Virus record (IMG/VR): IMGVR_UViG_3300023119_000004
DNA from: a virus
Lineage: Duplodnaviria; Caudoviricetes
DNA: 64,000 nt
Strand: one strand, 5' to 3'
The position numbers were made by a program, and so were the translations under genes. Numbering within the stretch: position 1 is the stretch's first letter; each line of letters starts with the position of its first letter. Shown piece by piece: positions 3,748 through 34,845 of the stretch. The notes beneath the pieces were generated by a model that worked only from the letters and a program-made list of their open reading frames with translations, had not been told where the DNA came from and searched no databases.

Positions 3748-4424
3748 GTGTCTTCCCAGTTTTTAATATTATAGCAAATTCCTAGATCGTTGTCAATGAT
3801 TTGTTTTTTCAAAGGATAGTCATTTCCTTCAGGATACATAGCATCACCAAAAAAGTGTAGTGTATCATTTGGACTAAAATCTCTTAAGATTTGTGATTTG
3901 TCATTGCCTTTTGGAAAAACATCAATGCCTGTTTCACCGCCAACCTTAGCACTTATCTCTGGGAACATAGTTTCGAACGCTCTTGCTATTCTATCTCGTT
4001 CGTTTATCCTTAAATCATGCTCTACATATAGTTTACGTTCACCCACAGTAGCATTACGTCCTACTACACTAAAATTACACATACCAGGTCTATGCTCAAA
4101 GTGTAGTCCTGTACGTAGTGGGAATTCGCTTTCGTTCATGCATTGTGTTAAAAACTGTTCTGCTATTTCAGGTAATTTCCAATCTGTTGTATAAACATTA
4201 GTTCCTGCTTCGTAAACATCACTGCCTGAACAGTTGTAAACTTTTTTAACATTTTCGCAAATGTCAGAACCAATTTGTTCAACAGTTTTTTCGTAATCAC
4301 TGCCTGTTACAAGATATACATTATTTGAATATGTAAATTCTAAAAACCAACGTTGAAACTCAACGTTCATTTTTTGACGACTCGGAGTCAGAGTACCGTC
4401 CACGTCAAATATGAATCTTTCCAT
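3723..4424 (-). CDS. HAD-IIB phosphomannomutase-like hydrolase
   Basis: FDVDGTLT motif I, VTGSD, FGD...GND motif IV. Confidence 0.85.
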   Translation of the reverse strand: MERFIFDVDGTLTPSRQKMNVEFQRWFLEFTYSNNVYLVTGSDYEKTVEQIGSDICENVKKVYNCSGSDVYEAGTNVYTTDWKLPEIAEQFLTQCMNESEFPLRTGLHFEHRPGMCNFSVVGRNATVGERKLYVEHDLRINERDRIARAFETMFPEISAKVGGETGIDVFPKGNDKSQILRDFSPNDTLHFFGDAMYPEGNDYPLKKQIIDNDLGICYNIKNWEDTWNRLRNV

Positions 4425-4577
4425 TTACTGCTTTTTCCTTACTTGTGGCTTAGGTTTACGTTCTTGCGGTTTTTCTAAAATGTTACGAATTGTATAAAGT
4501 TGTTCAATAACATCTTCAACTAGGTCTATGTCACTTGGCTTGTCTGTATCAAGATCAAGTTCTATTTTAATTTTCAT
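4425..4577 (-). CDS. Small hypothetical protein (50 aa)
   Basis: MKIKIELDLDTDKPSDIDLVEDVIEQLYTIRN...; fills the gap between flanking genes. Confidence 0.55.
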   Translation of the reverse strand: MKIKIELDLDTDKPSDIDLVEDVIEQLYTIRNILEKPQERKPKPQVRKKQ

Positions 4578-5232
4578 TTTGTTGTCCGTCTAAATATATA
4601 TGAATTTTCTTTGCTCTATCTTTTACAAGTGTTGTATAATCAGGATTAGTACTCCACTTGTTTAAAAAATCTATTTGTTTATCTATATCAAAATTGTGAT
4701 CGTTAAATTGTTTTACACGTTCTGCTCTAAATTCTGTGTAAGCCGGATGGGTGTTAATAATTCTAATCATGTCTTTAACACTTGCACATTTACTTCTATA
4801 CTTTTTAACACCAAAGTCGGCATCAGGTAAGTCAATCGGTTTTAATTGAGGTACGTTAGGATCCCAGGTTCTAATGCCAAAAAGGTTATTTCCATCTCTT
4901 GCAAATCTACTTTTGCCATAGCCTGTTTCAAGCACAGCCATTGCTATAATAATATCTCTATGAATTCTTTCTCTAGGTTCAATACCTAAGTTCCAAAAGT
5001 CAACACAACGAGCAACACCTTTAACAAATTGTTCGTCGGTAGTATAATCAATTGCAGGTTCTAAAAATCCAAACTCAGACCATTCGTTTGCAAATGCTTT
5101 TTGCATTTTAGCAGTCCATTTGTCTGTAATCCAATGATTAGGAAACCAAGTGCCTAGCCCAAATGTAGAAATAATCACAACTACACCTGCAAGAAAATAT
5201 GTTATTTGTTTTTTGACTTTTTTACTAATCAT
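4567..5232 (-). CDS. Glucosaminidase/Bax-like peptidoglycan hydrolase with N-terminal TM anchor
   Basis: AMAVLETGYGKSRFARDGNNLFGIR and WSTNPDY, the GH73 signature. Confidence 0.85.
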   Translation of the reverse strand: MISKKVKKQITYFLAGVVVIISTFGLGTWFPNHWITDKWTAKMQKAFANEWSEFGFLEPAIDYTTDEQFVKGVARCVDFWNLGIEPRERIHRDIIIAMAVLETGYGKSRFARDGNNLFGIRTWDPNVPQLKPIDLPDADFGVKKYRSKCASVKDMIRIINTHPAYTEFRAERVKQFNDHNFDIDKQIDFLNKWSTNPDYTTLVKDRAKKIHIYLDGQQNEN

Positions 5233-5240
5233 ATGACTAT

Positions 5241-5269
5241 ATTATAACTAACTTTGTTTGAAAAGTCAA
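5241..5269 (-). promoter_or_regulatory. Sigma70-type early promoter TTGACT-N17-TATAAT
   Basis: Near-consensus hexamers with 17-nt spacer, upstream of the glucosaminidase gene. Confidence 0.75.
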
Positions 5270-5272
5270 GTC

Positions 5273-5974
5273 CTATTTCCAATTTTCTTTGCACCAAGGA
5301 TCAATGCAATCTTTTGGATTCGGATCACCATGAAAAACTGCAACACTTGTTTCGGGTAGAATTTTTGGTACGCCAGGAGAGACAAAGTTGCGTTTACCTG
5401 TAATACGTGTCATTTCGGGTCTGCCACGCATTTCCCATTTATAACTTTGTATCCATTCGTCAGGCCAAAAGTTAAATTCTGAACGAACATTTTCATATAG
5501 CCAATCTTGATCTCCATGATATCTTTTTGAATGATATCCAGGCTGTTCCATAAACCTTTGATATACAACCTTGTGTTGTCCTGTTTCTAATCTAAATATA
5601 CTAGAGTTCATTCGAGACCATGTCGATTGCATTGATCTATTAAAATCTCTAATAACACAGAACTCACCTGCCTTATATGTAAACAGTTTATCTATGTTAT
5701 CAAAGATAATAACATCTAGATCAATATAAAGTACTGTACCATGTATTCCTAAATTAGGATTAAAGAACATAGTCTTGTACCACCAACCATTAATTTCAGG
5801 ATGCTTTTGAATAGGCATAACTTGTATGCCCGGGTTAATTCCTGTAGCATCTTCTGTAAAGCAGACAAAGGTATGAGGTACTGTTAGATTACGACTAACC
5901 ATACTATGCAAAGTGTTTACATACTCAGCACTATATTTGTTACCGTATTTTAAGCAAACAACATAGTTAGCCAC
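5273..5974 (-). CDS. Glycosyltransferase-like protein (GT-A, DxD)
   Basis: VCLKYGNKY, GWWYK, LYIDLDV, NSS, GDQDW, FHGDPNP. Confidence 0.75.
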   Translation of the reverse strand: MANYVVCLKYGNKYSAEYVNTLHSMVSRNLTVPHTFVCFTEDATGINPGIQVMPIQKHPEINGWWYKTMFFNPNLGIHGTVLYIDLDVIIFDNIDKLFTYKAGEFCVIRDFNRSMQSTWSRMNSSIFRLETGQHKVVYQRFMEQPGYHSKRYHGDQDWLYENVRSEFNFWPDEWIQSYKWEMRGRPEMTRITGKRNFVSPGVPKILPETSVAVFHGDPNPKDCIDPWCKENWK

Positions 5975-5984
5975 TGTGCCCTCC

Positions 5985-6578
5985 TTACATTGATGTATTT
6001 ACTGGACCGTATGATTTAGTATTCATTGCTTTCATAGGATTAGCACCCAAACTTAACGTTACCCTTGGACCTATAATCATAGGTTTGTGATTTGTTAGTC
6101 TTGGTAATAAAATTGCATCACCCGGATTTAGTGTGTAGATTGTTTTTTCTTGAGTATCTTTATCAGTTACTAAGTAAGCAACCTGTCCGTATCCTTGAAT
6201 TAGTAATACAGTTTCATAGTCATTATGAAGCATTAAACTATTGTGTGTGTCACTCATGCTGTAAAATAAACTAGCATTGAAGTGAGTTTCAGTTTCGTGT
6301 CGATCATAGTTTGATTGGAAGTCAAGCATATACTTTTGCAATCTCTTATCAGATCCAACATCGGGCAAGTGCGATCCGCCTCTTGCTAATTCATCGACAT
6401 TAGTAATTGTTGCTTTGTATTGATTTACTTCTACAAGAGTTTCAAAATTAATATCGTTTTTTGCATCGGGAAAAGCATTACGATAAACAGCAACGTTTAG
6501 ATTTTTACGATCTTCGTTTACTTGACTCCAATCCATCTTACGCCTCGTAGATTGCAGAGTTAGCACCGTGTTCTGCAC
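5985..6578 (-). CDS. JmjC/cupin-like oxygenase
   Basis: LHND...LNPGDAILLPRLTNH (HxD...H); true start may be near 6535. Confidence 0.6.
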   Translation of the reverse strand: MQNTVLTLQSTRRKMDWSQVNEDRKNLNVAVYRNAFPDAKNDINFETLVEVNQYKATITNVDELARGGSHLPDVGSDKRLQKYMLDFQSNYDRHETETHFNASLFYSMSDTHNSLMLHNDYETVLLIQGYGQVAYLVTDKDTQEKTIYTLNPGDAILLPRLTNHKPMIIGPRVTLSLGANPMKAMNTKSYGPVNTSM

Positions 6579-18041: not shown

Positions 18042-18641
18042 TTACACAAAATCGGGTCCATGTACCCATCCAACTAATGACTTTCGGATGCCTTTAGTTA
18101 CAGGTGTTACTTTGTGTGGCAAATAACTTGGGAAGAAACAGATTTGATTGTATTGTAGATCACAGTTAATGCCTTTGTAGTCTACATCAAGAATTAGATC
18201 GCCACCTTCAAACTCGTTTGGATCGTTCAATAGCAAACTAAAACTTAGTTTTCGTGTATCACCATTTTGTCCTTTAAGGGCACCATCGCAATGTGTTACA
18301 TAATGACCTTTCTTTTCTGCGGTATATACACTATACTGGCAAGGTTCTAAATAGGTAATAGCAAATTTGTATAATGTATTATTTGCATAATGCACAGCAT
18401 CGCCTAACCTTGCATAAATTTCTGGAAAACGGTTTGTGTCAATCCAACTAATATCAGTTGATCGAACAGTATCGTTTGAGCCTACTGCATTGTCATCCTC
18501 GATAAATCCAGCGGGTTCTAATGGGTTCTCTTTGTTCACATAGTCAGCCAATTCTTGTATTTGTTCTGGTATTAGAACATTGTCTAACTTAAAATGCGGA
18601 AATGGATTGCTGTTAATTAATGGTGGAACTAAATTATACAT
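18042..18641 (-). CDS. PKHD-type 2OG-Fe(II) prolyl-hydroxylase-like oxygenase
   Basis: HCDG...RKLSFSLLL..FEGGDL...FPSYLPHKVTPVTKGIRKSLVGW. Confidence 0.9.
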   Translation of the reverse strand: MYNLVPPLINSNPFPHFKLDNVLIPEQIQELADYVNKENPLEPAGFIEDDNAVGSNDTVRSTDISWIDTNRFPEIYARLGDAVHYANNTLYKFAITYLEPCQYSVYTAEKKGHYVTHCDGALKGQNGDTRKLSFSLLLNDPNEFEGGDLILDVDYKGINCDLQYNQICFFPSYLPHKVTPVTKGIRKSLVGWVHGPDFV

Positions 18642-19155
18642 TTGTTGCTCTAATCTGTAGTGTTACTCTTGTCTGTTTTGCCCACGGAGTAATACTAGTA
18701 ACCGAGTGCATAACAGGCTTTTCCATTCTATTAATCAAGATCATTTTGTTGTAATTTGGTTCTTCGGCAATAATTTTTCCTAGTGTGCTATCTCTATATA
18801 AAAACAATCCACCATCGTTAAAATCCCAATCATGATTAAGATAAACTGTTGCACTAGCACCATACCCCATATCATCGTGCCAATCTAGCATACTGTTTCT
18901 ATTCCAAAGGTACACGTATGATTTAAAATCGTAATCTTTTAATCTTGGATCTACTTCAACAATAAGTTTTTTAAGTTCTTCGTTAAACTCGTCAATTAAA
19001 GTCATATTAAAACTAGTTGAGCCTTCGTGAACAATGTTATCAACACTATGGCTTGTCATCCAAGCAAATGAATTGCTTTGAATTTTTTCTTTGATATGAA
19101 GAGCAATATCTTCAATCATTTTTTGAGGTAGAAAGTTTTCTTTAATTGTAATCAT
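18634..19155 (-). CDS. 2OG-Fe(II) oxygenase
   Basis: WHDD..SATVYLN..GGLF...HSVT..RVTLQ. Confidence 0.85.
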   Translation of the reverse strand: MITIKENFLPQKMIEDIALHIKEKIQSNSFAWMTSHSVDNIVHEGSTSFNMTLIDEFNEELKKLIVEVDPRLKDYDFKSYVYLWNRNSMLDWHDDMGYGASATVYLNHDWDFNDGGLFLYRDSTLGKIIAEEPNYNKMILINRMEKPVMHSVTSITPWAKQTRVTLQIRATNV

Positions 19156-23840: not shown

Positions 23841-24407
23841 TTAAAATATGTGATCTGCAATACCTAAATCAACCATTTGTTTGGCTGTGTAATATTGATC
23901 ACTTGGGTTCTTAATAAATTTGTTACGTACTTCTTGGATTGTCATTCCGCTGGCATCTTTTAATATTTGTAAACAACGCATTTCACAGTTTTGGTTTTCT
24001 TTCATCTGTGCTTTCATGTCGTGTACTTTGGCTTCCATTGAGTCGGAATGTTGATGATTCATTGAACCTGCATTTTTACCAACATAACGCTCACCCTGTT
24101 TGCCACTAGCAAAAATTAAAAAGCCAGCACTCATAACAGCACCAATACCGATAGTGCTAATGTTATGATAACTGTTCTTCATTACATCAATCAAAGCAAA
24201 TGCTTCGTATAGGTCTCCGCCATATGTGTTAATGTAAAGTTTAAGGGTACGTTTTGGTTTCTTGTTTAAGTTTGCAGAAAGAATCCATTTGATTGCTTCA
24301 CCTACATTTTCACTAGCAATGTCGCCGTGCAGATAATGGATATCACTGTCCAACAGACTTTTATCAATGGCGTCACTTGCAGTCCAATTATCGTATTTTG
24401 TAGGCAT
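23841..24407 (-). CDS. clpP: ClpP-family protease
   Basis: LYINTYGGD, GAVMSAG (Ser), MNHQ (His), DQYYTAKQMVDLGIAD (Asp). Confidence 0.88.
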   Translation of the reverse strand: MPTKYDNWTASDAIDKSLLDSDIHYLHGDIASENVGEAIKWILSANLNKKPKRTLKLYINTYGGDLYEAFALIDVMKNSYHNISTIGIGAVMSAGFLIFASGKQGERYVGKNAGSMNHQHSDSMEAKVHDMKAQMKENQNCEMRCLQILKDASGMTIQEVRNKFIKNPSDQYYTAKQMVDLGIADHIF

Positions 24408-25168: not shown

Positions 25169-25531
25169 GTGGAAATTTTCCTATTTTTAATGATAAAACA
25201 CGCTATTGTTGACCTTGGTTTTCAACCATTTGGTCTCGGTAGTTCCAAAAAATATTATTTTGGTTGGCCCGCTCACAAACAACATTATGTCCCACACGGA
25301 CTCTTAACCGTGCTTGTAATGGCGTCTTACACGCACATAAACGTCGCTGTAGCGTTGGGAATACTAGATTATATACTACACTGGCATACAGACTTTACTA
25401 AGACTAAAATACGTAATTATTTTGAATGGACTAGCAAAGACAGACAGTTTTGGATTTTGAATGCTGTAGATCAAATACTACACTTTACTGGATACTATAT
25501 AATTGTGTTGATTGCTACTTCACAAATTTAA
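25169..25531 (+). CDS. DUF3307-like membrane protein
   Basis: KHAIVD..Q...H...HWHTD...DQILH; TATAAATA at 25133-25140. Confidence 0.75.
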   Translation: MEIFLFLMIKHAIVDLGFQPFGLGSSKKYYFGWPAHKQHYVPHGLLTVLVMASYTHINVAVALGILDYILHWHTDFTKTKIRNYFEWTSKDRQFWILNAVDQILHFTGYYIIVLIATSQI

Positions 25532-26882
25532 ACGCAAACTTACCGCCAATACGTGAACTATAATAATTCTTAGAACCATCTAGTGCAACAGTACCTTGGA
25601 AGTTTGGAGGGTAAACAGCCTGGAAGCCAGTTACACGAATGTCGTCACCCTTCTTACCAACTTTGGTATAAAGTTGTATAATACTTGCTGTGTTTAATAA
25701 TGAAATTGCTTCTGTAGAAAATTTTGGATTTTCGTTTACCTTGAGTGCAACCTTTTTAGCCAACGCACTTGTGATAGCATATCCGGTATTAAACCCTTGA
25801 ACAGTCATATCAAAGTTAACACCTTCAACCATTTTAGTTGCTTCGTCACTCATGTTTTCAAAGTCTTGTTTACCTTGCTTCATATACTCGTCTGCTTCTT
25901 TTCTTAGTGCAGGAGTTGATAACTGAAACTTTTCGCCTAAATCAAAAGGTGCTTCTTTTGCACTCTTAGTTGCAATAGTTGTAACTATGTCTGCAACAAA
26001 CTTTGTATTTGACATTAGTTCGGCATTGTCTTTGTTCTTTTGTAAAGAGTCATACAAGTTCTTTGCACTAGCAGATGCACCAGCGCCACCTTTAGAACTA
26101 ATACCAATCTCTTTGCCGTCTGGAGCAAGGAACACGCTATCGACTAAGTTGTAGTTCATTGCCATAGGCCAAAAGATATTAAGGTCTTTCCAGTTAGCGC
26201 CACCGGCTAACTCTTGTCTTGCCTGTTCGGCGTCACCTTGTACAAGGCCACCCATCATAGCAACCGGACCCATAATTTCACCAAAGTAATCTCTAATAGA
26301 TTCTAGTTTTTCAATCTGCCCTGGGAACTCAGGCATTTGTCCATTAGATGCTGATTCAAGTGCAGTTACAAGAACTTCACCTTCCTGGCCAGCATTAGTT
26401 CTTACAGTTTGAATAATCTGTTCTGGACCTTTAAATTTGTTTTGAGATTTAATTAGTGTTTGTGGATCTAAACCAGTATCAATCTTTAACGCACCCTTGG
26501 TACCTAATTTCCAACCTGATGGAATTTGACTGTTACCCCAAACACCCATTAGGTCTGCACCTACTTGTCTAAGATATCTACCCCAGTAAATGTCTTTACC
26601 ATCGCTAGTTCTAATCTGTGCAATACCAAATGCTAGTGTTCCTGCGTTAGCAGTATTAACCCATTCAATTTTAGCATTGTTATTTTTTTCAAACTCTGCA
26701 ATGGCTTCGTCACGTTCTTCTGCTGTAGCAAATTTACCACCTTGTGAAAGATCTGGAATTGCAATCGCTTGTACGAACTCTGCCTTTTCGCCATTGTCGT
26801 GGATATATGGCTCTCCAGGTTTACGCCCGAAAATGCCTTTAGACTCTATTACTTGTGTTTGTTTAAATTCGAAAAACCTCAT
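25515..26882 (-). CDS. Late (probably head-packaged) protein with PD-(D/E)xK-like C-terminal domain
   Basis: MRFFEF leader; YFGEIMGP...NLVDSVF...IGISSKGG; late promoter at 26891-26898. Confidence 0.5.
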   Translation of the reverse strand: MRFFEFKQTQVIESKGIFGRKPGEPYIHDNGEKAEFVQAIAIPDLSQGGKFATAEERDEAIAEFEKNNNAKIEWVNTANAGTLAFGIAQIRTSDGKDIYWGRYLRQVGADLMGVWGNSQIPSGWKLGTKGALKIDTGLDPQTLIKSQNKFKGPEQIIQTVRTNAGQEGEVLVTALESASNGQMPEFPGQIEKLESIRDYFGEIMGPVAMMGGLVQGDAEQARQELAGGANWKDLNIFWPMAMNYNLVDSVFLAPDGKEIGISSKGGAGASASAKNLYDSLQKNKDNAELMSNTKFVADIVTTIATKSAKEAPFDLGEKFQLSTPALRKEADEYMKQGKQDFENMSDEATKMVEGVNFDMTVQGFNTGYAITSALAKKVALKVNENPKFSTEAISLLNTASIIQLYTKVGKKGDDIRVTGFQAVYPPNFQGTVALDGSKNYYSSRIGGKFAFKFVK

Positions 26883-26893
26883 AGCACTAGTAT

Positions 26894-27589
26894 TTATGCT
26901 ATTTTTGGAAATAATGCGTTAGTGCAGAATTCGTCAACATCTGCTTCATTAAGTCCTAATGACTTCATAACTCTAGGTGTATGTGGATTTTGTTGCTGGT
27001 TATGGCAGTAGTAGTTTTGAGCACCTGCTGTAATATCTACACTAGCATTGCCTGTATACTCAGGAACACTATCAAACCATACACGCAGGTTTTCTAAAGC
27101 AAGATCTACAATAGCAGTTGCTTCTTCTTCTGTGCGAACATTACCTGCGGCAACCATTCCTGGTGAAAAGATGTTCTGTGCCCATTCGGGTAGTTCACGT
27201 TGTTTACTAGGAATAAAATCTTTAACAGCATCTAAGTACCATTCTACAAGAGGATGTTCTTCACCGCCTGAACTTGCTGAAAAATCATGAAATGCACCTG
27301 TCATTTTATTCTTACCTGCAATAACATCAAAGCCGTAAATAGGACCATCATTTGATAACACAGGAAAACAACATACGTGCATCATCCACAGTCCGTGCGA
27401 GTCTCTTGCGTCTACAACATCAATGTGTGCTCTGCGTACATGATCATTTGCCCATACTCTGTTGATCCAACCGTTCTCAGGCTGATTAAATTTGTTTAAT
27501 CCTTTTTCTTCTATTTCAGTGGCTTTCTCATCAAAGATGTTTAATATTTCATTTTGGCATTCAATTAGTTTATCCCAAATGACACTCAT
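26894..27589 (-). CDS. pcyX: Ferredoxin-dependent bilin reductase, PcyX-type
   Basis: RAHIDVVD...WMMHVC-(17 aa)-GFDVI: His/Asp pair spaced as in PcyA/PcyX, Met two residues before the His, Asp 14 residues before it; ATG 27589 overlaps the halogenase TGA. Confidence 0.85.
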   Translation of the reverse strand: MSVIWDKLIECQNEILNIFDEKATEIEEKGLNKFNQPENGWINRVWANDHVRRAHIDVVDARDSHGLWMMHVCCFPVLSNDGPIYGFDVIAGKNKMTGAFHDFSASSGGEEHPLVEWYLDAVKDFIPSKQRELPEWAQNIFSPGMVAAGNVRTEEEATAIVDLALENLRVWFDSVPEYTGNASVDITAGAQNYYCHNQQQNPHTPRVMKSLGLNEADVDEFCTNALFPKIA

Positions 27590-29106
27590 GATCTGTTTCC
27601 CCAATCTCTATTATACATACCAGGTGTTGTCCAATCAACATCGTCTTTGTTCATCTTTTCTAAAAGTTCCATGGCTTTGTCTTTTTCTAATCCTGGTGAT
27701 GCTGTTTTAATTCCTGTTGTGTTAAGCCATAGTTTCCAATTCATCTCAGCAAAGATTTCTGTATTACGGGGGAAAAACTGATAGTCATCGTCCCACATAA
27801 CTGTAGGTGTATAGTTATGTTTAAAGTTTGTTGCAATCTCTGTAAGTTTATCTGTTTCCTTAAAGTTTTTATAAACGTGTTCCCAAAACTTACCTTTACG
27901 TGGATTATTAAAATAATGTAGTGCTACAAAGTTCATAGTATCTTCATAGACTGCTGTCATATCTTCGTTAAACTTTAATCTATCTTCTTCAGTATAACTT
28001 AGTTTTTCTAAAACTTTTAGGCCACTAGCACCAATTGTAAGTAATGCAAGTCCTGTTGATTCTAACGGTTCAATAAATCCACTAGCAAGTCCTACACTAA
28101 AACAGTTGCCTCTCCAGTTGTTTGCATTATATTCTGGCTTGAAAGGAACATGATTAAACTGTCCTGTTCTTAGTCTGTGTTCACCCCAATGCTGTACAAA
28201 GAAATCTTCTGCTTCTTGTTTAGTGGTAAGTTCACTGTTGTAACATAGTCCACTACCAATACGATCTTTAACAGGTGTTTTCCAAATCCAACCTAGGTCA
28301 CACGCCTGTGCAGTAACGTATGGAAGTTGTACTTCATCTTCTGTTTCGTAATCTATTTGACTTGCTACTGCGGCATTAGTAAACAGCATATGACTTCTGT
28401 CAATCCATTTACTGTCGGGCAATGCATTTGAAAGTAAACGTTTAAAGCCAGTACAGTCTACAAAAAAATCTGCTGTAACTTTTGTACCGTCATCTAATGT
28501 TACATATTCAATAACACCATCAGTAACCTTTGGAGCATCAATGTGTTTTTGAATATGTGTTAGTCTTGGATACTTCTTATTAAGATAATCAGATAAGAAG
28601 TTTGCTAGTTTAACAGCATCTAAATGATATCCTACATGAGCAGTACCACCGCAAGGTGTTGTGTTATTTGGAATCTTTTTATCTACAACAGAAACTTTAT
28701 GCCAAGCAATATATTTTTCTAATTCAACCTCATTAATGCCGCCGTCACGAGCAAGGTCAATGCTATCAAGTGTTCCGTGTTCTGTATGTGTTACAGGAAA
28801 AAAGAATGGTTGCCAAATGTTAATGCCGTCGCCCTTCCAGTTTGGAAAGTAAGTCCCTGTTTTAATAGTTGCGTCACAAGCCTTTGTCCATAGTTCTCTA
28901 GGAATATTACAATCGTCTAAAAAATGATCAAACCCTAAAATAGTTGCTTCACCTACGCCAACAATAGGAACATTAGGACTTTCAATAAGTGTGATTTGTG
29001 TTTCGGGTAAGTTTGATAATGCATAAGCGGCCGTAAGCCAACCAGCACTTCCTCCACCTACAATACAAATGGACCTAGCACGGCTACGACCTACTACTTC
29101 AGTCAT
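27586..29106 (-). CDS. Flavin-dependent (tryptophan) halogenase, PrnA/VirX1-like
   Basis: GGGSAG, VGEATI, CDATIK (catalytic Lys), GWIWKTP (WxWxIP-like), SGFIEPLESTG. Confidence 0.9.
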   Translation of the reverse strand: MTEVVGRSRARSICIVGGGSAGWLTAAYALSNLPETQITLIESPNVPIVGVGEATILGFDHFLDDCNIPRELWTKACDATIKTGTYFPNWKGDGINIWQPFFFPVTHTEHGTLDSIDLARDGGINEVELEKYIAWHKVSVVDKKIPNNTTPCGGTAHVGYHLDAVKLANFLSDYLNKKYPRLTHIQKHIDAPKVTDGVIEYVTLDDGTKVTADFFVDCTGFKRLLSNALPDSKWIDRSHMLFTNAAVASQIDYETEDEVQLPYVTAQACDLGWIWKTPVKDRIGSGLCYNSELTTKQEAEDFFVQHWGEHRLRTGQFNHVPFKPEYNANNWRGNCFSVGLASGFIEPLESTGLALLTIGASGLKVLEKLSYTEEDRLKFNEDMTAVYEDTMNFVALHYFNNPRKGKFWEHVYKNFKETDKLTEIATNFKHNYTPTVMWDDDYQFFPRNTEIFAEMNWKLWLNTTGIKTASPGLEKDKAMELLEKMNKDDVDWTTPGMYNRDWGNRS

Positions 29107-29638
29107 TATCGACCTCCATCATTTCTTTGAATGTTTCTGTAGCAAAGTCAAAACATATCTTTGCTTCTTCAGCCATATCATCGTTCAACTGTTCTCTTAT
29201 GGCTGTTTTCAGTTCGTCAACAGGAGCATCAAATTGATACAATCTTCCTTCTCCTGGAATTTTCTTTTTAATCATTTGTCCACCGCTTAGGTCACCCATG
29301 TGTCTAACATATACGTGAGCCATGACTTTATCTGGATCTCCCATAATTGTTCTCATATGTTCTAGATACTTTTCTGTTACTTTTAAAGTTTTAGGCATTT
29401 CTTGTTTAGGCCATAACTCTTTAAAATCATCTAGTATGCTCGGGGAACGTCTAATAGCAGGATGAGGCAATAAGCCATGTGTCATTGCTATTGCTTCTAA
29501 AATATTGTATTGAATATGTTGATTATATAAAAATGTTGCATAAAGTTCTTTGTCAATTTTACCTGACATTAAAACTTTTACAAATGCTTGGCGTTCTGCG
29601 TTCTTATGGTGTTCCCACGTTGCTTCTTTTAAGTTCAT
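29099..29638 (-). CDS. hemO: Heme oxygenase
   Basis: LKEATWEHHKNAE (proximal His), AHVYVRHMGDLSGGQMI, EAKICF. Confidence 0.92.
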   Translation of the reverse strand: MNLKEATWEHHKNAERQAFVKVLMSGKIDKELYATFLYNQHIQYNILEAIAMTHGLLPHPAIRRSPSILDDFKELWPKQEMPKTLKVTEKYLEHMRTIMGDPDKVMAHVYVRHMGDLSGGQMIKKKIPGEGRLYQFDAPVDELKTAIREQLNDDMAEEAKICFDFATETFKEMMEVDND

Positions 29639-29943
29639 TCTTTTTCCACTTTGATCTGCAATGGGAATCCGTTTGCTCTGCTCAAAGTGGTTGCTTCTAC
29701 GCTTTTTTGTTCTGCAATTTCAAATGCGTAAACGCCAACTACTGCACTTCCATCTTCATGAATTTGTAGAGTTAGATTTTTTGCTGTGTCAACAGAATGC
29801 TTAAAAGTAGTTACTAGCACATCGATCACGAAATCCATTGGTGTTTGGTCATCATTAATAAAAATAACTGAGTACCTTTCGGGCTCAGCAATTTTTATCT
29901 TAATCTTTTCGTCAATTTGTACATCCATATTATTACTTATCAT
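29635..29943 (-). CDS. clpS: N-end-rule adaptor ClpS
   Basis: YSVIFINDDQTPMDFVI...QIHEDGSAVVG..FEIAEQK...GFPL; SD AGGAGA before ATG 29943. Confidence 0.92.
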   Translation of the reverse strand: MISNNMDVQIDEKIKIKIAEPERYSVIFINDDQTPMDFVIDVLVTTFKHSVDTAKNLTLQIHEDGSAVVGVYAFEIAEQKSVEATTLSRANGFPLQIKVEKE

Positions 29944-29970
29944 TGTATGATCTCCTACCAGTAAATAATG

Positions 29971-29994
29971 ATAGTGGGGATTGCTCCCCACTAC
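29971..29994 (-). terminator. Strong GCAA-tetraloop hairpin between hsp20 and clpS (weak terminator or processing site)
   Basis: GTAGTGGGGA-GCAA-TCCCCACTAT, only a short U-tract. Confidence 0.55.
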
Positions 29995-30010
29995 CGACCT
30001 TTTAAGTGTA

Positions 30011-30460
30011 TTACTTAACTTCGATTGATCTTGCTTTTTTAGCCTCTGGAATAATTCTTTCCAAAGCAATTCTAAGCAAGCCATCTTTTAGTTCAGCACC
30101 TTGTACTACTACATCGTCTGCAATAGTAAATGATTTAGTAAAGTGCCTTTTACTAATACCTCTGTATTGTACACCATCCGCTTCATCGTCAGTTTTTGAC
30201 TCTTGGATTGATTTAACAGTTACCACACCGTCTTCGTATGATACGTCAATATCCTTTTTGCCAAAACCAGCAAGTGCTAATTCAATATCGTAAGTATAGT
30301 CGCCTGTTTTTACAATATTGTATGGCGGATAGTTAGTGTTAAAAGTAGGTGCATTGAAGAAGTCGTCTTCAATCATTCTTTCGAATCTATCAAAGATAGG
30401 ATCGAACCCTACTGATACGGGTCTTAGTTGGTTAAAGATTGATAGTGATTTGTTTGTCAT
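30011..30460 (-). CDS. hsp20: Small heat-shock protein Hsp20/IbpA
   Basis: YPPYNI...ELALAGF...YRGIS.R.F.KSF...A.LKDGLL.I.L. Confidence 0.95.
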   Translation of the reverse strand: MTNKSLSIFNQLRPVSVGFDPIFDRFERMIEDDFFNAPTFNTNYPPYNIVKTGDYTYDIELALAGFGKKDIDVSYEDGVVTVKSIQESKTDDEADGVQYRGISKRHFTKSFTIADDVVVQGAELKDGLLRIALERIIPEAKKARSIEVK

Positions 30461-30530
30461 TTGTTTTCTCCTTATTAAGCAAGTTGTTTGTCATGTAAGA
30501 CCTATCAAGCATCTTACAATCTTATTTATC
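30461..30530 (-). promoter_or_regulatory. hsp20 leader: late promoter, hairpin and AACTTGCTTAATAAGGAG motif
   Basis: GATAAATA, TGTAAGA-TGCTTGATAGG-TCTTACA, AACTTGCTTAATAAGGAGAAAA. Confidence 0.7.
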
Positions 30531-32414
30531 TACCTCTTCAAACTCGGCGTCTACAACGTTTTCATCTTTCTTAGATGTTGTTTCTGCTTCTTCTGAAGTG
30601 TTAGATTCTTGTTGTGCCTTGTAAACTGCTTCACCTAACTTCATTGCCACTTGTGATAGTGCTTCTGTTTTAGATTTAATATCTTCAACATTGTCACCTT
30701 TAAGTGCTTCTTGTAAGTTAGTCTTAGCATCTTCAATTGATGTTTTAATATCTTCCGATACTTTATCACCGTGTTCTTTTAACTGTGATTCAACTGAGTG
30801 TACAAGACCGTCAGCATTGTTTCTAGCATCTACGGCTTCTCTCTTTTGTTTGTCAGCCTCTTTATTTGCTTCTGCATCTTTGACCATTTGTTCAATTTCT
30901 GCATCACTCAAACCGCCGTCTGATTTAATAGAGATTGTTTGTTCTTTGCCTGTGCCTTTATCTTTTGCTGATACGTTAACAATACCGTTTGCGTCAATAT
31001 CAAATGTTACTTCAATTTGAGGCATACCTTTTGGTGCTGGTGCAATACCTTCTAGATTAAAGAGACCAAGTTCTTTATTATCTACAGCCATTTCACGCTC
31101 ACCTTGTAATACCTTAATAGTAACTGCTGATTGATTATCTTCCGCAGTACTAAACACTTGTGATTGTTTAGTTGGGATTGTTGTATTCTTTTCAATTAGT
31201 TTAGTAGTAACACCGCCTAGTGTTTCAATACCCAATGAAAGCGGAGTAACGTCAAGTAGCAATACATCTTTAACATCACCACTTAATACACCTGCTTGAA
31301 TTGCGGCACCTAGTGCTACAACTTCATCTGGGTTAACACCTTTGTTTGGATCTTTACCAAAGAATGTTTTAACAGTTTCTTGTACCTTAGGCATACGTGT
31401 CATACCACCTACTAGTACAACGTCTGTAATATCACCTTTGCTTACACCTGCGTCTTTAAGAGCAGTTTCACAAGGTTTAATTGAACGTTGGATTAGTTCG
31501 TCTACAAGACTTTCAAACTTAGCACGAGTAATTTTTAAATTCAAGTGCTTAGGTCCAGAAGCATCTGCTGTAATAAATGGTAGACTGATGTCAGTTTGTG
31601 TTGTGCTTGACAATTCAATCTTTGTTTTTTCAGCCGCTTCACGTACACGTTGTAGTGCTAGTTTGTCTGTTGAAATATCTACACCAGACTCTTTCTTAAA
31701 CTCGTCTACAATGTATTGTGTAAGAACAGCATCAAAGTCTTCACCACCTAATGCTGTGTCACCGTTTGTTGAAAGTACTTCAAATACTCCGTCACCGAGG
31801 TCAAGTACTGATACGTCAAATGTACCACCACCTAAGTCATACACAACAATCTTGCCTGACTCTTTTTTATCTAGTCCGTAAGCAAGTGCCGCCGCTGTTG
31901 GTTCATTTACAATACGTAAAACTTCTAGTCCTGCAATTTTACCTGCATCTTTAGTTGCTTGACGTTGTGCATCGTTAAAGTATGCTGGTACTGTAATAAC
32001 TGCTTGTGTTACAGTTGAGCCTGTATACTTTTCAGCAGTTTCTTTCATCTTGGTTAATACTTCTGCTGATACTTGTTGTGGGGAAAGTTCTTTACCTTTT
32101 GTTTCTACCCACGCATCACCGTTCTTTGCTTCTACAATTTTGTATGGAAGCGTTTTAGCATCACGTGTGATTTCTTTTGATTTAAACTTACGTCCAATTA
32201 GACGCTTTGACGCATAGATTGTGTTCTCTGCGTTAGTAACTGCTTGACGCTTTGCTGATACACCTACAAGTGTACCATCGTCAGTATAGGCTACAATACT
32301 AGGTGTAGTTCTATTACCTTCTACGTTTTCAATTACTTGGGGATCTTTGCCGCTTAGTATAGCAACACATGAATTTGTGGTACCCAAATCGATACCAATA
32401 ACTTTATTAGCCAT
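30522..32414 (-). CDS. dnaK: Chaperone DnaK (Hsp70)
   Basis: [33 protein letters not shown]; start ATG 32414 after SD. Confidence 0.97.
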
Positions 32415-32485
32415 TTTTTTCTCCTTATTAAGCAAGTTTTAATTACAAAACCTATTCAGCATTTTGTAACATATAAGTATTTATC
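32415..32485 (-). promoter_or_regulatory. dnaK leader: same architecture as hsp20 leader
   Basis: GATAAATA, TTACAAAA-TGCTGAATAGG-TTTTGTAA, AACTTGCTTAATAAGGAGAAAA. Confidence 0.7.
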
Positions 32486-32535: not shown

Positions 32536-33096
32536 TTACCGATTTATAAAATAAAACTGATTGATACTATATCTACCACTTCCTATACACCTAGATACAC
32601 TATGTTGTAAAAAACTTGGAAATAATATAGTTGTATTATTTTTTAATGTAGGCTTATATCCAAAGTCTGTAAACTCTAAATCTCCACCTTCAAATGCTTT
32701 TGGTTCTTTCCATAAAACTGTCACGGCAGATAATGTGCCATGATCAGCATGATGATCATATACTGCTCCGTTTCCATAATAGTTTACCTGTGTTACATCA
32801 TGGTTAGTGTAAGGTAAGTATCCTGCAAACGGATTGTCTTTTAGTTGCTCTTGCAAATAAAATAGTTTCCTATTAAAGTTCAAGACGTAACTTTTTTCTC
32901 TGTTATCTTTATAGTGTGTATCCATGTGAATAGCACACATTTTATCATTTGCTCTAGGGTCGCCAGTTTCTGCTGACGGTCTAAAGTATGCGTCTAGTGA
33001 ATTAATCTCTACAAGGATTTCTTTTAGTTCCCACGGTTCGTAAAAATCGTAGATGATACTATGATGAAAAGGTTCATGTAGATTCTTAACAAGCAC
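32536..33096 (-). CDS. 2OG-Fe(II) oxygenase
   Basis: HHADH...FEGGDL..FPSFLQHSV...RYSI. Confidence 0.85.
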   Translation of the reverse strand: MLVKNLHEPFHHSIIYDFYEPWELKEILVEINSLDAYFRPSAETGDPRANDKMCAIHMDTHYKDNREKSYVLNFNRKLFYLQEQLKDNPFAGYLPYTNHDVTQVNYYGNGAVYDHHADHGTLSAVTVLWKEPKAFEGGDLEFTDFGYKPTLKNNTTILFPSFLQHSVSRCIGSGRYSINQFYFINR

Positions 33097-34247
33097 TAGT
33101 TACCTATTGTGTTTTTTTCGTATACAGTATTGTGTGTTTGTGTACAACGTACAAATGTAGCACATCTACTTAGATGTTTAAGTCTTATTGCGCCAGCATA
33201 AGTACAAGCAGAACGCAACCCACCCAAGATATCTTGAACAGTAGTAGCCACTGCTCCTCGGTAAGGCACAAGAATTTCTCTTCCTTCACTGCTTCTATAC
33301 TCCTTAAGGCCTCCAAAGTGTTTGTCGTTCGCGGCCTTCGAACTCATTCCGTAGAATTGTACAAACTTTTTTTCTTCAATTTTATTTTGTATACCACCTT
33401 GATCAAAAGTAACTTCATCTGTAGTATACATTTTAGTAATTACTTCTCCACCACCTTCATCGTGCCCGGCGAGCATTCCTCCAAGCATAACAAAATCTGC
33501 TCCTGCGGCAAAAGCCTTTGCAACATCTCCAGGCGATACGCATCCTCCATCGGCAATAATGTGTCCACCGAGACCGTGTGCGGCGTCGGCACATTCAATG
33601 ACTGCGGAGAGTTGTGGGAATCCAACCCCAGTTTGAATCCTAGTAGTACACACGCTCCCGGGACCAATACCCACCTTAACAATATCCGCTCCACTTAAAA
33701 TTAACTCCTCTGTCATTTCTCCGGTAACTACATTACCTGCAATAATTACAATATGTGGATATAAACGTCTAAACTCTGCAACAAAGTCACGGAAACGATT
33801 TGAATATCCGTTAGCAACATCGATACAAACATAACGTAACTTATCACCTGTTTGTTCATATACTTGACGAAACTTTTCATGATCGTGATCAGTAATACCA
33901 ATGCTCATTGCTACATACTGGGTACGTTCATCGTATTCACTATCAAAGTAACATACTAGATCATTTACACTATATGTCTTTTTAAGACAGGTAAACATTT
34001 TTACTTCAGCAAGTTTGTCTGCAACTTCAAATGTTCCTACACCATCCATGTTAGCGGCCATAATAGGAATACCCCGCCAGTGTCTATGATCAGGTCGGAT
34101 TTGCTCCATGCTCATATCTTGTGGCTTCCAGTTACGCCAAGTAAATCCTCTTTCAAGATCTACTTCTTTACGACTTCCTAAAGTTGAACGTTTAGGACGT
34201 AGTAATACATCTTTGTAGTCGAGTTTAATGTCTTGGTCGATTCGCAC
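33096..34247 (-). CDS. guaC: GMP reductase
   Basis: ANMDGVG, CIDVANGY, KVGIGPGSVCTTR, FYGMSS, GGLRSACTY; GTG start at 34247 after GGAG. Confidence 0.93.
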   Translation of the reverse strand: MRIDQDIKLDYKDVLLRPKRSTLGSRKEVDLERGFTWRNWKPQDMSMEQIRPDHRHWRGIPIMAANMDGVGTFEVADKLAEVKMFTCLKKTYSVNDLVCYFDSEYDERTQYVAMSIGITDHDHEKFRQVYEQTGDKLRYVCIDVANGYSNRFRDFVAEFRRLYPHIVIIAGNVVTGEMTEELILSGADIVKVGIGPGSVCTTRIQTGVGFPQLSAVIECADAAHGLGGHIIADGGCVSPGDVAKAFAAGADFVMLGGMLAGHDEGGGEVITKMYTTDEVTFDQGGIQNKIEEKKFVQFYGMSSKAANDKHFGGLKEYRSSEGREILVPYRGAVATTVQDILGGLRSACTYAGAIRLKHLSRCATFVRCTQTHNTVYEKNTIGN

Positions 34248-34845
34248 TTTTAACTCCGTAGTTAAACGATACTGCAATACGTTCGTTGTTGCTTTTGTTT
34301 TGTGTTACTTCATGTTTTGCCCAGCCAGGAAATATTGCTACCATGCCAGGTTTAGGCGGATATGTTGCCATTGTGCTTGTGATAGTATTATACTGACTTA
34401 GATTATCGGGAATATAATACTGTGCATCATCAGGACGATAAAATCTTAAATCACCCATATTCTCATCTGGTACATCAATGTAGAATACTCCACTTAGTAA
34501 TGCATCTTGATGATTGTGTAAAGTGTGATATGCTCCTGGTCCATTAATGTTAATCCAAAAGTTTTGAAATTCAACTTCTGGCAATCCGCAGACTTTAGAT
34601 ACATACGCCATAGCCTCATCTAATTCTGTTACAAATTTTCTAAGTACTGGAACGTACTGTGGATCTACTAGATCAACATTTTCAATACTACGACTGTGCC
34701 ACCCACCTTGATTGCTGTTACCATGCAAGTCTGGTTCTTTAGTTCTCCAGTCATGTGCAATATGTTTCATAGCATTTCTGTCTACCTTTTCTAAATAGCC
34801 GGCAAACACAAATTGCGGAAACCATAAGTCTGCTTTAAATTCCAT
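34225..34845 (-). CDS. 2OG-Fe(II) oxygenase (TIGR02466-like)
   Basis: WININ..HNH..LSGVFY...FPGWAKHEV...RIAVSFN. Confidence 0.88.
   Translation of the reverse strand: MEFKADLWFPQFVFAGYLEKVDRNAMKHIAHDWRTKEPDLHGNSNQGGWHSRSIENVDLVDPQYVPVLRKFVTELDEAMAYVSKVCGLPEVEFQNFWININGPGAYHTLHNHQDALLSGVFYIDVPDENMGDLRFYRPDDAQYYIPDNLSQYNTITSTMATYPPKPGMVAIFPGWAKHEVTQNKSNNERIAVSFNYGVKSANRPRH

Follow-up and report, generated by a model that had tools for sequence, protein, structure and literature searches.

This report concerns a gene for a flavin-dependent halogenase (FDH) in a 64,000-nucleotide (nt) stretch of viral DNA, hereafter the window, from the IMG/VR record IMGVR_UViG_3300023119_000004 (Duplodnaviria; Caudoviricetes). 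In the window the heme oxygenase gene hemO and the bilin reductase gene pcyX are not directly adjacent: the 1521-nt halogenase gene lies between them, in a position that we call the slot, and the three genes form a coupled run with clpS, laid out as follows (lengths in amino acids, aa).

29635-29943, minus strand: clpS, encoding a Clp protease adaptor; it opens the coupled run; PF02617 at 5e-27
29099-29638, minus strand: hemO, heme oxygenase, 179 aa; PF01126 at 1.2e-22
27586-29106, minus strand: flavin-dependent halogenase, 506 aa; PF04820 (Trp_halogenase) at 1.7e-89
28861-28863, minus strand: codon of halogenase Lys82, predicted to be catalytic (position counted from the start codon at 29106)
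26894-27589, minus strand: pcyX, PcyX-type ferredoxin-dependent bilin reductase (FDBR), 231 aa from the ATG at 27589; PF05996 (Fe_bilin_red) at 2.9e-17

An initial annotation of this DNA had described these four genes as overlapping at each junction, and the overlaps, read directly from the sequence, bear this out: 4 nt between clpS and hemO (ATGA, 29635-29638), 8 nt between hemO and the halogenase gene (ATGACTGA, 29099-29106; a GGAGG Shine-Dalgarno sequence lies 9 nt upstream) and 4 nt between the halogenase gene and pcyX (ATGA, 27586-27589). Its identification of hemO, the halogenase gene and pcyX is likewise upheld by Pfam, by sequence matches in the PDB and by hallmark residues. HemO aligns to human HO-1/HO-2 and to cyanobacterial heme oxygenases, and keeps both the proximal histidine of ATxxxH and the GDLSGGQ motif of the distal helix. 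PcyX is 52.6% identical to the corresponding gene product of Pelagibacter phage Mosig and, in its alignment to the phage PcyX structure 5OWG (E 6.6e-82), is identical at the positions of Asp55, His69 and Asp86. Of these, Asp55 has been named as PcyX-specific (PMC11480375). Both enzymes look fully functional, a prediction drawn from these residues, and their apparent integrity is one point in favour of a proposal made in the initial annotation, namely that the halogenase acts on a bilin or pyrrole. In this explanation the enzyme would halogenate biliverdin or phycoerythrobilin (PEB) at a methine bridge or a vinyl group, or porphobilinogen at its free α-carbon, and would occupy the slot because the three enzymes act together; the product would be a halogenated tetrapyrrole or an inhibitor of the pathway.

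The halogenase itself retains the expected machinery. Its FAD-binding motif GxGxxG is present as GGGSAG (residues 17-22), and this motif is kept in 33 of the 34 sequences from the clade that occupies the slot (clades A, B and C, below). Lys82 aligns in HMMER with the catalytic lysine of Thal (Lys79 of PrnA, RebH and Thal), and is invariant in the 65 homologues used to assess conservation, which have diverged to 32-72% identity. Across the same 65 sequences, the first tryptophan (Trp273) of the WxWxIP motif, here WIWKTP at residues 273-278 with Thr in place of Ile, is invariant or nearly so. In the EPLES motif at residues 346-350, Glu349 is invariant and Glu346 is more than 90% conserved; one of these glutamates corresponds to Glu346 of PrnA. 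The retention of GxGxxG, the catalytic lysine and WIWKTP, asserted in the initial annotation, thus agrees with the alignments to Thal and to the 65 homologues. Sequence matches in the PDB are to Thal, RebH, VirX1 and PrnA (E 1e-61 to 1e-53). An AlphaFold2 model (mean predicted local confidence, pLDDT, 93.5) adopts the two-module FDH fold according to Foldseek, which aligns it to Thal, PrnA, RebH and Xcc4156 at E ~1e-40, with TM scores of 0.85-0.88. The invariance of these residues across such diverged homologues indicates purifying selection on what appears to be halogenation machinery. Given the fold, the intact catalytic residues and the invariance of Lys82 and Glu349, we conclude that the window protein is a bona fide FDH, of a phage-only clade, and very probably an active one.

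Bearing in mind that many proteins of the Trp-halogenase family lack demonstrated activity, and that neither a flavin reductase nor a ferredoxin was found among the ~20 neighbouring open reading frames (ORFs) that we scanned, the protein could instead be a non-halogenating flavin monooxygenase or an inactive relic. We regard this as highly improbable: Lys82, the EPLES glutamates, GxGxxG and Trp273 are all invariant or nearly so among the 65 homologues, the ORF is intact, its GC content is like that of its surroundings, and FDHs normally borrow a flavin reductase from the host.

Thal, RebH and PrnA are the best structural and sequence matches, yet in the structural alignment their identity to the window halogenase is only 24-27%, and the latter has none of the three motifs that contact tryptophan. 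At the position of the Trp1 motif, AT(I/V/F)(P/S), the window has ATILG, and none of the 22 members of clades A and B matches; the Trp2 motif (HxFG) is matched by 0 of 34 slot-clade members, as is the Trp4 motif (YYxxF..EF(R/K)NFW.N..YY or (Y/H)YHG(L/F)(P/E)PYS). Furthermore, the C-terminal 122 residues (385-506), when searched alone, matched no solved halogenase at E<=1. In characterised enzymes Trp1, Trp2 and Trp4 contact tryptophan, and FDHs without Trp4 accept indole, not tryptophan (PMC8269204). The window enzyme resembles the Group C/BrvH-type indole FDHs (PMC8269204; PMC5945002) in that both lack Trp4 and retain the residues for flavin and halide; it differs from them in also having no recognisable Trp1 or Trp2, motifs that enzymes of groups A and B possess and that have analogues in metagenomic enzymes lacking Trp4 (PMC8269204). 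Judged by its motifs, then, the halogenase is Trp-halogenase-like in family and is not a canonical tryptophan halogenase. The missing motifs imply some other substrate, which a tetrapyrrole could in principle be.

The initial annotation had proposed a survey of synteny at hemO-pcyX loci, and its outcome is mixed: a halogenase gene does recur between hemO and pcyX, and it is missing from most of the loci. With the window's PcyX as query we took the best 80 of 244 IMG/VR loci (69-83% identity), and a freshwater FDBR yielded 79 further loci; about 166 hemO-pcyX loci were covered in all, each with flanks of ±6 kb (loci are labelled L below). The order hsp20-clpS-hemO-pcyX is near-universal in ~160 related phage loci, mostly with dnaK upstream. 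The halogenase gene is housed in this conserved block, dnaK-hsp20-clpS-hemO-pcyX, which belongs to large T4-like phages of aquatic habitats that are relatives of the pelagimyophages. In 141 of 166 loci, hemO and pcyX are adjacent or are separated by a gap of at most 315 nt that holds at most one small ORF. A halogenase gene lies between them in 13 of 79 marine loci, which is probably an overestimate in view of the bias of this set toward the window's relatives, and in 1 of 79 freshwater loci. Among the nearest hemO-pcyX loci, ~84% of the marine and ~99% of the freshwater ones lack it, which speaks against a tetrapyrrole-linked function. Each element also occurs without the other: Pelagibacter phage Mosig has hemO-pcyX and no halogenase, and Pelagibacter phage HTVC008M has a halogenase (27% identity, beside a 2-oxoglutarate (2OG)-Fe(II) oxygenase gene) and no pcyX. 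Since only a minority of loci carry the halogenase gene, and since these two phages carry one element without the other, the halogenase is dispensable for the hemO-pcyX cassette.

The slot halogenases recovered from PcyX-based surveys and from exact-protein look-ups represent ~12 distinct contexts (the window, L002-L012, L081, L016/20/36/41, L082/83, L084/85/88/89/91 and one ENA contig). By database search, they comprise marine clade A (64-72% identity to the window's halogenase), marine clade B (49-57%) and clade C (44-48%), the last on contigs with freshwater-type neighbours (CsgF/CsgG). A, B and C unite as a single clade in a maximum-likelihood tree (SH-aLRT 99). The next clades outward (43-45% identity) are sited elsewhere in their genomes, without hemO: between clpP and a DNA ligase gene in L090, in the tail region in L086, and beside 2OG-FeII_Oxy_3/Oxy_5 genes in L170 and L171. 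In the record that contains L013, where the slot is empty, three other halogenase paralogues are encoded at different sites (G002:C1:9231-12069 and 25939-27180); they share 29-31% identity with the window's halogenase, and two of them stand in tandem. Among cellular homologues, the nearest 80 do not exceed 34% identity, and hemO or an FDBR gene lies within 6 kb of none of them (0/80), another point against a link to bilins. In the PcyX tree, loci that lack the halogenase surround a single group made up of the clade A loci. Those of clade B cluster with L019, itself halogenase-free, and those of clade C fall at three places among halogenase-free freshwater loci, so that at least five gains or losses of the halogenase gene are needed. 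The pattern would result if the gene had been gained long ago and lost many times since, and also if the insert had moved through recombination of its homologous flanks.

The company kept by these relatives raises a further explanation, in which the halogenase belongs to a variable tailoring set with scattered 2OG-Fe(II) oxygenases (and, in clade B, a CN-hydrolase) that would act on a substrate other than a tetrapyrrole, perhaps an amino acid, a peptide or a protein side chain, with HemO and PcyX as bystanders. The sister halogenases and that of HTVC008M stand immediately beside 2OG-Fe(II) oxygenase genes, and the window itself has 2OG oxygenase genes at 18042-19155, 32536-33096 and 34225-34845. 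In clade B loci L016, L020, L036 and L082/83 (not L041), the halogenase gene is followed by a CN_hydrolase gene with a 4-nt overlap, and the hydrolase has an apparently intact Glu-Lys-Cys triad, as read from its sequence:

L016, 5102-5887: clade B CN_hydrolase gene
L020, 3989-4756: clade B CN_hydrolase gene
L036, 3990-4763: clade B CN_hydrolase gene
L082, 3010-3771: clade B CN_hydrolase gene

On the other hand, neither an oxygenase nor a hydrolase partner is present in the slot of the window or of clades A and C; these phages have 2OG oxygenases in such numbers that a position beside one says little; and the annotated stretch nearby has no gene for a carrier protein, a precursor peptide or an adenylation enzyme. 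Among the rivals to the reading that we prefer, such joint tailoring with nearby oxygenases or hydrolases ranks first, and in our judgement it is unlikely.

Another key observation to emerge from the survey is that the hemO/pcyX junction accepts a variety of genes. In some halogenase-free loci the gap is empty and the two genes overlap. In about two dozen marine loci it holds a conserved ORF of 70-90 aa, for example:

L071, 5787-6014: 70-90-aa gap ORF
L023, 1111-1320: 70-90-aa gap ORF
L050, 3939-4193: 70-90-aa gap ORF

The single copy of this ORF that was scanned, from L050, had no Pfam match. In L054 the gap contains a 2OG-FeII_Oxy_3 oxygenase gene. In L050 the small ORF is accompanied by genes for two paralogous proteins of ~305 aa (4193-5999) that have no Pfam match; both show an H(T)D...H pattern reminiscent of cupins or 2OG oxygenases. 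The gap of L019 (1707-3923, IMGVR_UViG_3300032820_003406) encodes a CN_hydrolase, a second, divergent heme-oxygenase (HO)-like protein and a 2OG-FeII_Oxy_3 oxygenase. This HO-like protein (208 aa, PF01126 at 6e-7) has neither the ATxxxH histidine nor the GDLSGGQ motif, and may be no heme oxygenase but a heme-oxygenase-like di-iron oxidase. In L016, L041 and L082, of which L041 is without the hydrolase, pcyX is preceded by the gene for a conserved hydrophobic peptide of 35 aa. These occupants show that the hemO/pcyX junction is an insertion hot spot for enzyme genes; we did not find such a hot spot described in the literature that we searched. That the junction also accepts unrelated genes is a further point against the idea that the halogenase is there on account of the bilin pathway.

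A second halogenase-hemO adjacency is found in a different freshwater T4-like phage lineage, in which the halogenase gene is upstream of hemO:

L175, 4512-7214: halogenase-hemO adjacency, second lineage
L161, 2-2215: halogenase-hemO adjacency, second lineage

The context in these loci is PhoH ... orf199 - halogenase - hemO - pcyX - orf89 - gp59 - gp32, with 4-nt overlaps. The halogenase (499 aa) is 26% identical to the window's, and its gene lies immediately upstream of hemO, which it overlaps by 4 nt; L110 shares this context but lacks the halogenase. That an unrelated halogenase gene should overlap hemO favours a tetrapyrrole link. Nevertheless, there are about two independent association events, for which a rough estimate of the probability of chance (~3 adjacent of ~13 gene positions) is ~0.05, and we consider the halogenase-hemO adjacency to be suggestive, not decisive.

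We also looked for signs that HemO and PcyX have changed along with the halogenase. No column of PcyX changes convergently in at least three of the five halogenase-bearing groups, as compared with their nearest halogenase-free sisters. HemO has a few weak substitutions that track the halogenase. The chemistry offers a separate consideration. FDHs normally substitute aromatic C-H positions on indoles, pyrroles and phenols. In biliverdin IXa and PEB all of the pyrrole ring carbons are already substituted, so that the methine bridges and vinyl groups alone could react; porphobilinogen does have a free α-carbon. We know of no natural halogenated bilin and of no FDH that acts on a bilin, and this, together with the lack of an unsubstituted ring carbon in biliverdin and PEB, lowers the prior for bilin halogenation.

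We therefore slightly favour, at a little better than even probability, a reading in which the halogenase gene is an accessory auxiliary metabolic gene at an insertion-tolerant junction, whose product probably acts on a non-bilin, indole-like aromatic substrate; this assessment draws on sequence comparisons and a structural model. It follows from the minority distribution of the gene, the hot-spot character of the junction, the location of sister halogenases elsewhere, the lack of accompanying change in PcyX, and the fact that clpS is coupled in the same manner. Short overlaps are indeed not peculiar to the hemO-halogenase-pcyX trio: the functionally unrelated clpS overlaps hemO likewise, and a downstream ORF, orf455, begins 11 nt after pcyX. 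We envisage that the slot halogenase was acquired once or a few times from a pool of phage halogenase paralogues that otherwise reside beside 2OG-Fe(II) oxygenases, that the conserved gene order of these phages keeps it in the slot, and that it has been lost repeatedly. It would be translated with its neighbours during infection and would use host-reduced FADH2, O2 and ambient halide to halogenate an aromatic metabolite that is small and electron-rich, an indole-type compound and not free tryptophan; such chemistry would be independent of the heme-to-PEB route of HemO and PcyX.

Several observations weigh against the accessory-gene interpretation. Every member of A+B+C that we examined lies exactly between hemO and the FDBR gene and nowhere else, even across marine and freshwater phages whose PcyX proteins are ~55% identical and whose halogenases are 44-72% identical; in all three clades the halogenase gene overlaps both neighbours and is translationally coupled on both sides. 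Each halogenase gene detected within ±6 kb of the ~166 hemO-pcyX loci directly abuts hemO, those of L161 and L175 included. Residue 87 of HemO is Val in 21 of 22 halogenase-bearing loci and is mixed elsewhere. The other occupants of the slot are also oxidative or tailoring-type enzymes, as would fit a variable bilin-modifying module. The confinement of one old clade to the slot, and the presence of a second, unrelated halogenase gene at hemO, are evidence that the slot halogenase is not a one-off random insertion. As to the alternative that the initial annotation had allowed, an unrelated insertion, the junction does take unrelated enzymes, and the slot-confined clade does not fit a single chance event. 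As to its proposal of bilin or pyrrole halogenation, the coupling, the intact residues and the slot-bound clade lend it support; the minority of loci, the hot spot and the lack of co-change in PcyX do not, and the conserved gene order of T4-like phages accounts for retention in the slot without a shared function. On balance we consider a tetrapyrrole substrate decidedly unlikely.

The arrangement can be compared with known systems. Ledermann et al. are said to have described, in 2016, both two-gene hemO-pcyX and three-gene hemO-pcyA/X-alaS cassettes in phages. The window has the same HemO and PcyX-type FDBR, as do pelagimyophage-like T4-type contigs with the two-gene cassette, and differs in that a 1.5-kb halogenase gene splits the pair; unlike in the three-gene cassette, no alaS was seen in the annotated part of the window. 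The literature that we searched on such cassettes has no mention of a halogenase within them, and neither PMC11480375 nor its supplements mention one; the halogenase between hemO and pcyX therefore appears to be an undescribed variant of the known cassette. VirX1, the FDH of cyanophage Syn10 (PDB 6QGM), is of the same Pfam family and fold as the window halogenase and has the same catalytic Lys and Glu (E 1.5e-53; the Syn10 gene is ~31% identical to the window's). It belongs to a different clade, however, the cyanophage genes are not beside genes for heme oxygenase or bilin reductase, and the iodination preference of VirX1 is not something that can be read from the window's sequence. VirX1 is cited in PMC10452541 as the viral FDH of Gkotsi et al. 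2019, and its native substrate is not known. The pairs of halogenase and 2OG-Fe(II) oxygenase genes, such as that of HTVC008M, are of the same phage group of T4-like aquatic phages and include the nearest sister clades (43-45% identical), but they are found in other genome regions, without hemO or pcyX.

The presence of hemO-pcyX in phages of apparently heterotrophic hosts has been called enigmatic (PMC11480375). A halogenase clade confined to the cassette bears on this puzzle, and also on the question of what phage halogenases, widespread as they are, naturally act upon. Were the halogenase to act on bilins, this would be new tetrapyrrole chemistry: the first natural halogenated open-chain tetrapyrrole, or a new form of viral control over heme metabolism. 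Halogenation of porphobilinogen would throttle tetrapyrrole synthesis in the host, and the other occupants of the slot (2OG oxygenases, the CN-hydrolase, the HO-like protein) would then be alternative bilin-tailoring enzymes. If it does not act on bilins, the lesson is that tight and deeply conserved coupling in these phages need not mean a shared pathway, which calls for caution in the annotation of auxiliary metabolic genes.

The wider neighbourhood of the cassette is a proteostasis block. The window has a GC content of ~37%, and nearly all of its genes are on the minus strand, where the order of transcription (descending coordinates) is dnaK, hsp20, a hairpin, clpS, hemO, the halogenase gene, pcyX, orf455 and, further on, clpP:

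30522-32435, minus strand: dnaK (Hsp70); PF00012 at 2e-271
30011-30460, minus strand: hsp20, conserved neighbour upstream; PF00011 at 9e-16, phrog_432 at 3e-40, 71% nt identity to the Mosig gene
29970-29995, minus strand: terminator-like hairpin between hsp20 and clpS; 11-bp stem with 6 GC pairs, then a T-rich tail
25515-26882, minus strand: orf455, conserved in position and fast-evolving, 11 nt downstream of pcyX
23841-24407, minus strand: clpP-like protease, downstream member of the proteostasis neighbourhood; PF00574 at 1.4e-26
18042-19155, 32536-33096, 33096-34277 and 34225-34845: 2OG oxygenase and IMPDH/GMP-reductase genes

Placed just before the four coupled genes, the hairpin at 29970-29995 may act as a terminator or an attenuator, and may mark the 5' boundary of a clpS-hemO-halogenase-pcyX unit. 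The clpS ORF is open to 30084, and AGGAGA precedes the ATG at 29943. A scan of the window for sigma-70 promoters returned no more matches than did shuffled sequence. The dnaK...clpP block is flanked by a gene for an IMPDH/GMP-reductase and by four for 2OG-Fe(II) oxygenases, which are of Oxy_3, Oxy_3/Oxy_4 and Oxy_5 type. Pelagimyophages have a hypervariable region with the replication module on one side and the structural module on the other (PMC7029224).

A large ORF follows pcyX by ~15 nt in most of the surveyed loci; it ranges from 300 to 636 aa, and its 74 distinct sequences have a mean column identity of 19%. The window's copy, orf455, had no match in Pfam, PHROG or the PDB (by Foldseek). 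Its AlphaFold2 model (pLDDT 84.7) has weak similarity to restriction-endonuclease-like proteins (MspI, Z 5.0) and, at the N-terminus, to a Tudor/KOW-like barrel (Z<=5). We had entertained orf455 as a bilin acceptor and set this idea aside on the slender ground of these faint restriction-endonuclease-like and Tudor-like matches.

In clade C contigs L084, L085, L088, L089 and ERZ1426855, homologues of the curli-secretion genes CsgF/CsgG are encoded shortly downstream of the FDBR gene; such genes are found in all pelagimyophage groups except the freshwater fonsimyophages (PMC7029224). The similarities of hsp20, PcyX and the halogenase point to an uncultured aquatic phage of pelagimyophage-like, T4 type as the source of the window, and the non-photosynthetic host named in the initial annotation would follow from this resemblance. 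Relatives of 100 kb are ~30% complete according to CheckV, and the genome of the window phage is probably large, >300 kb.

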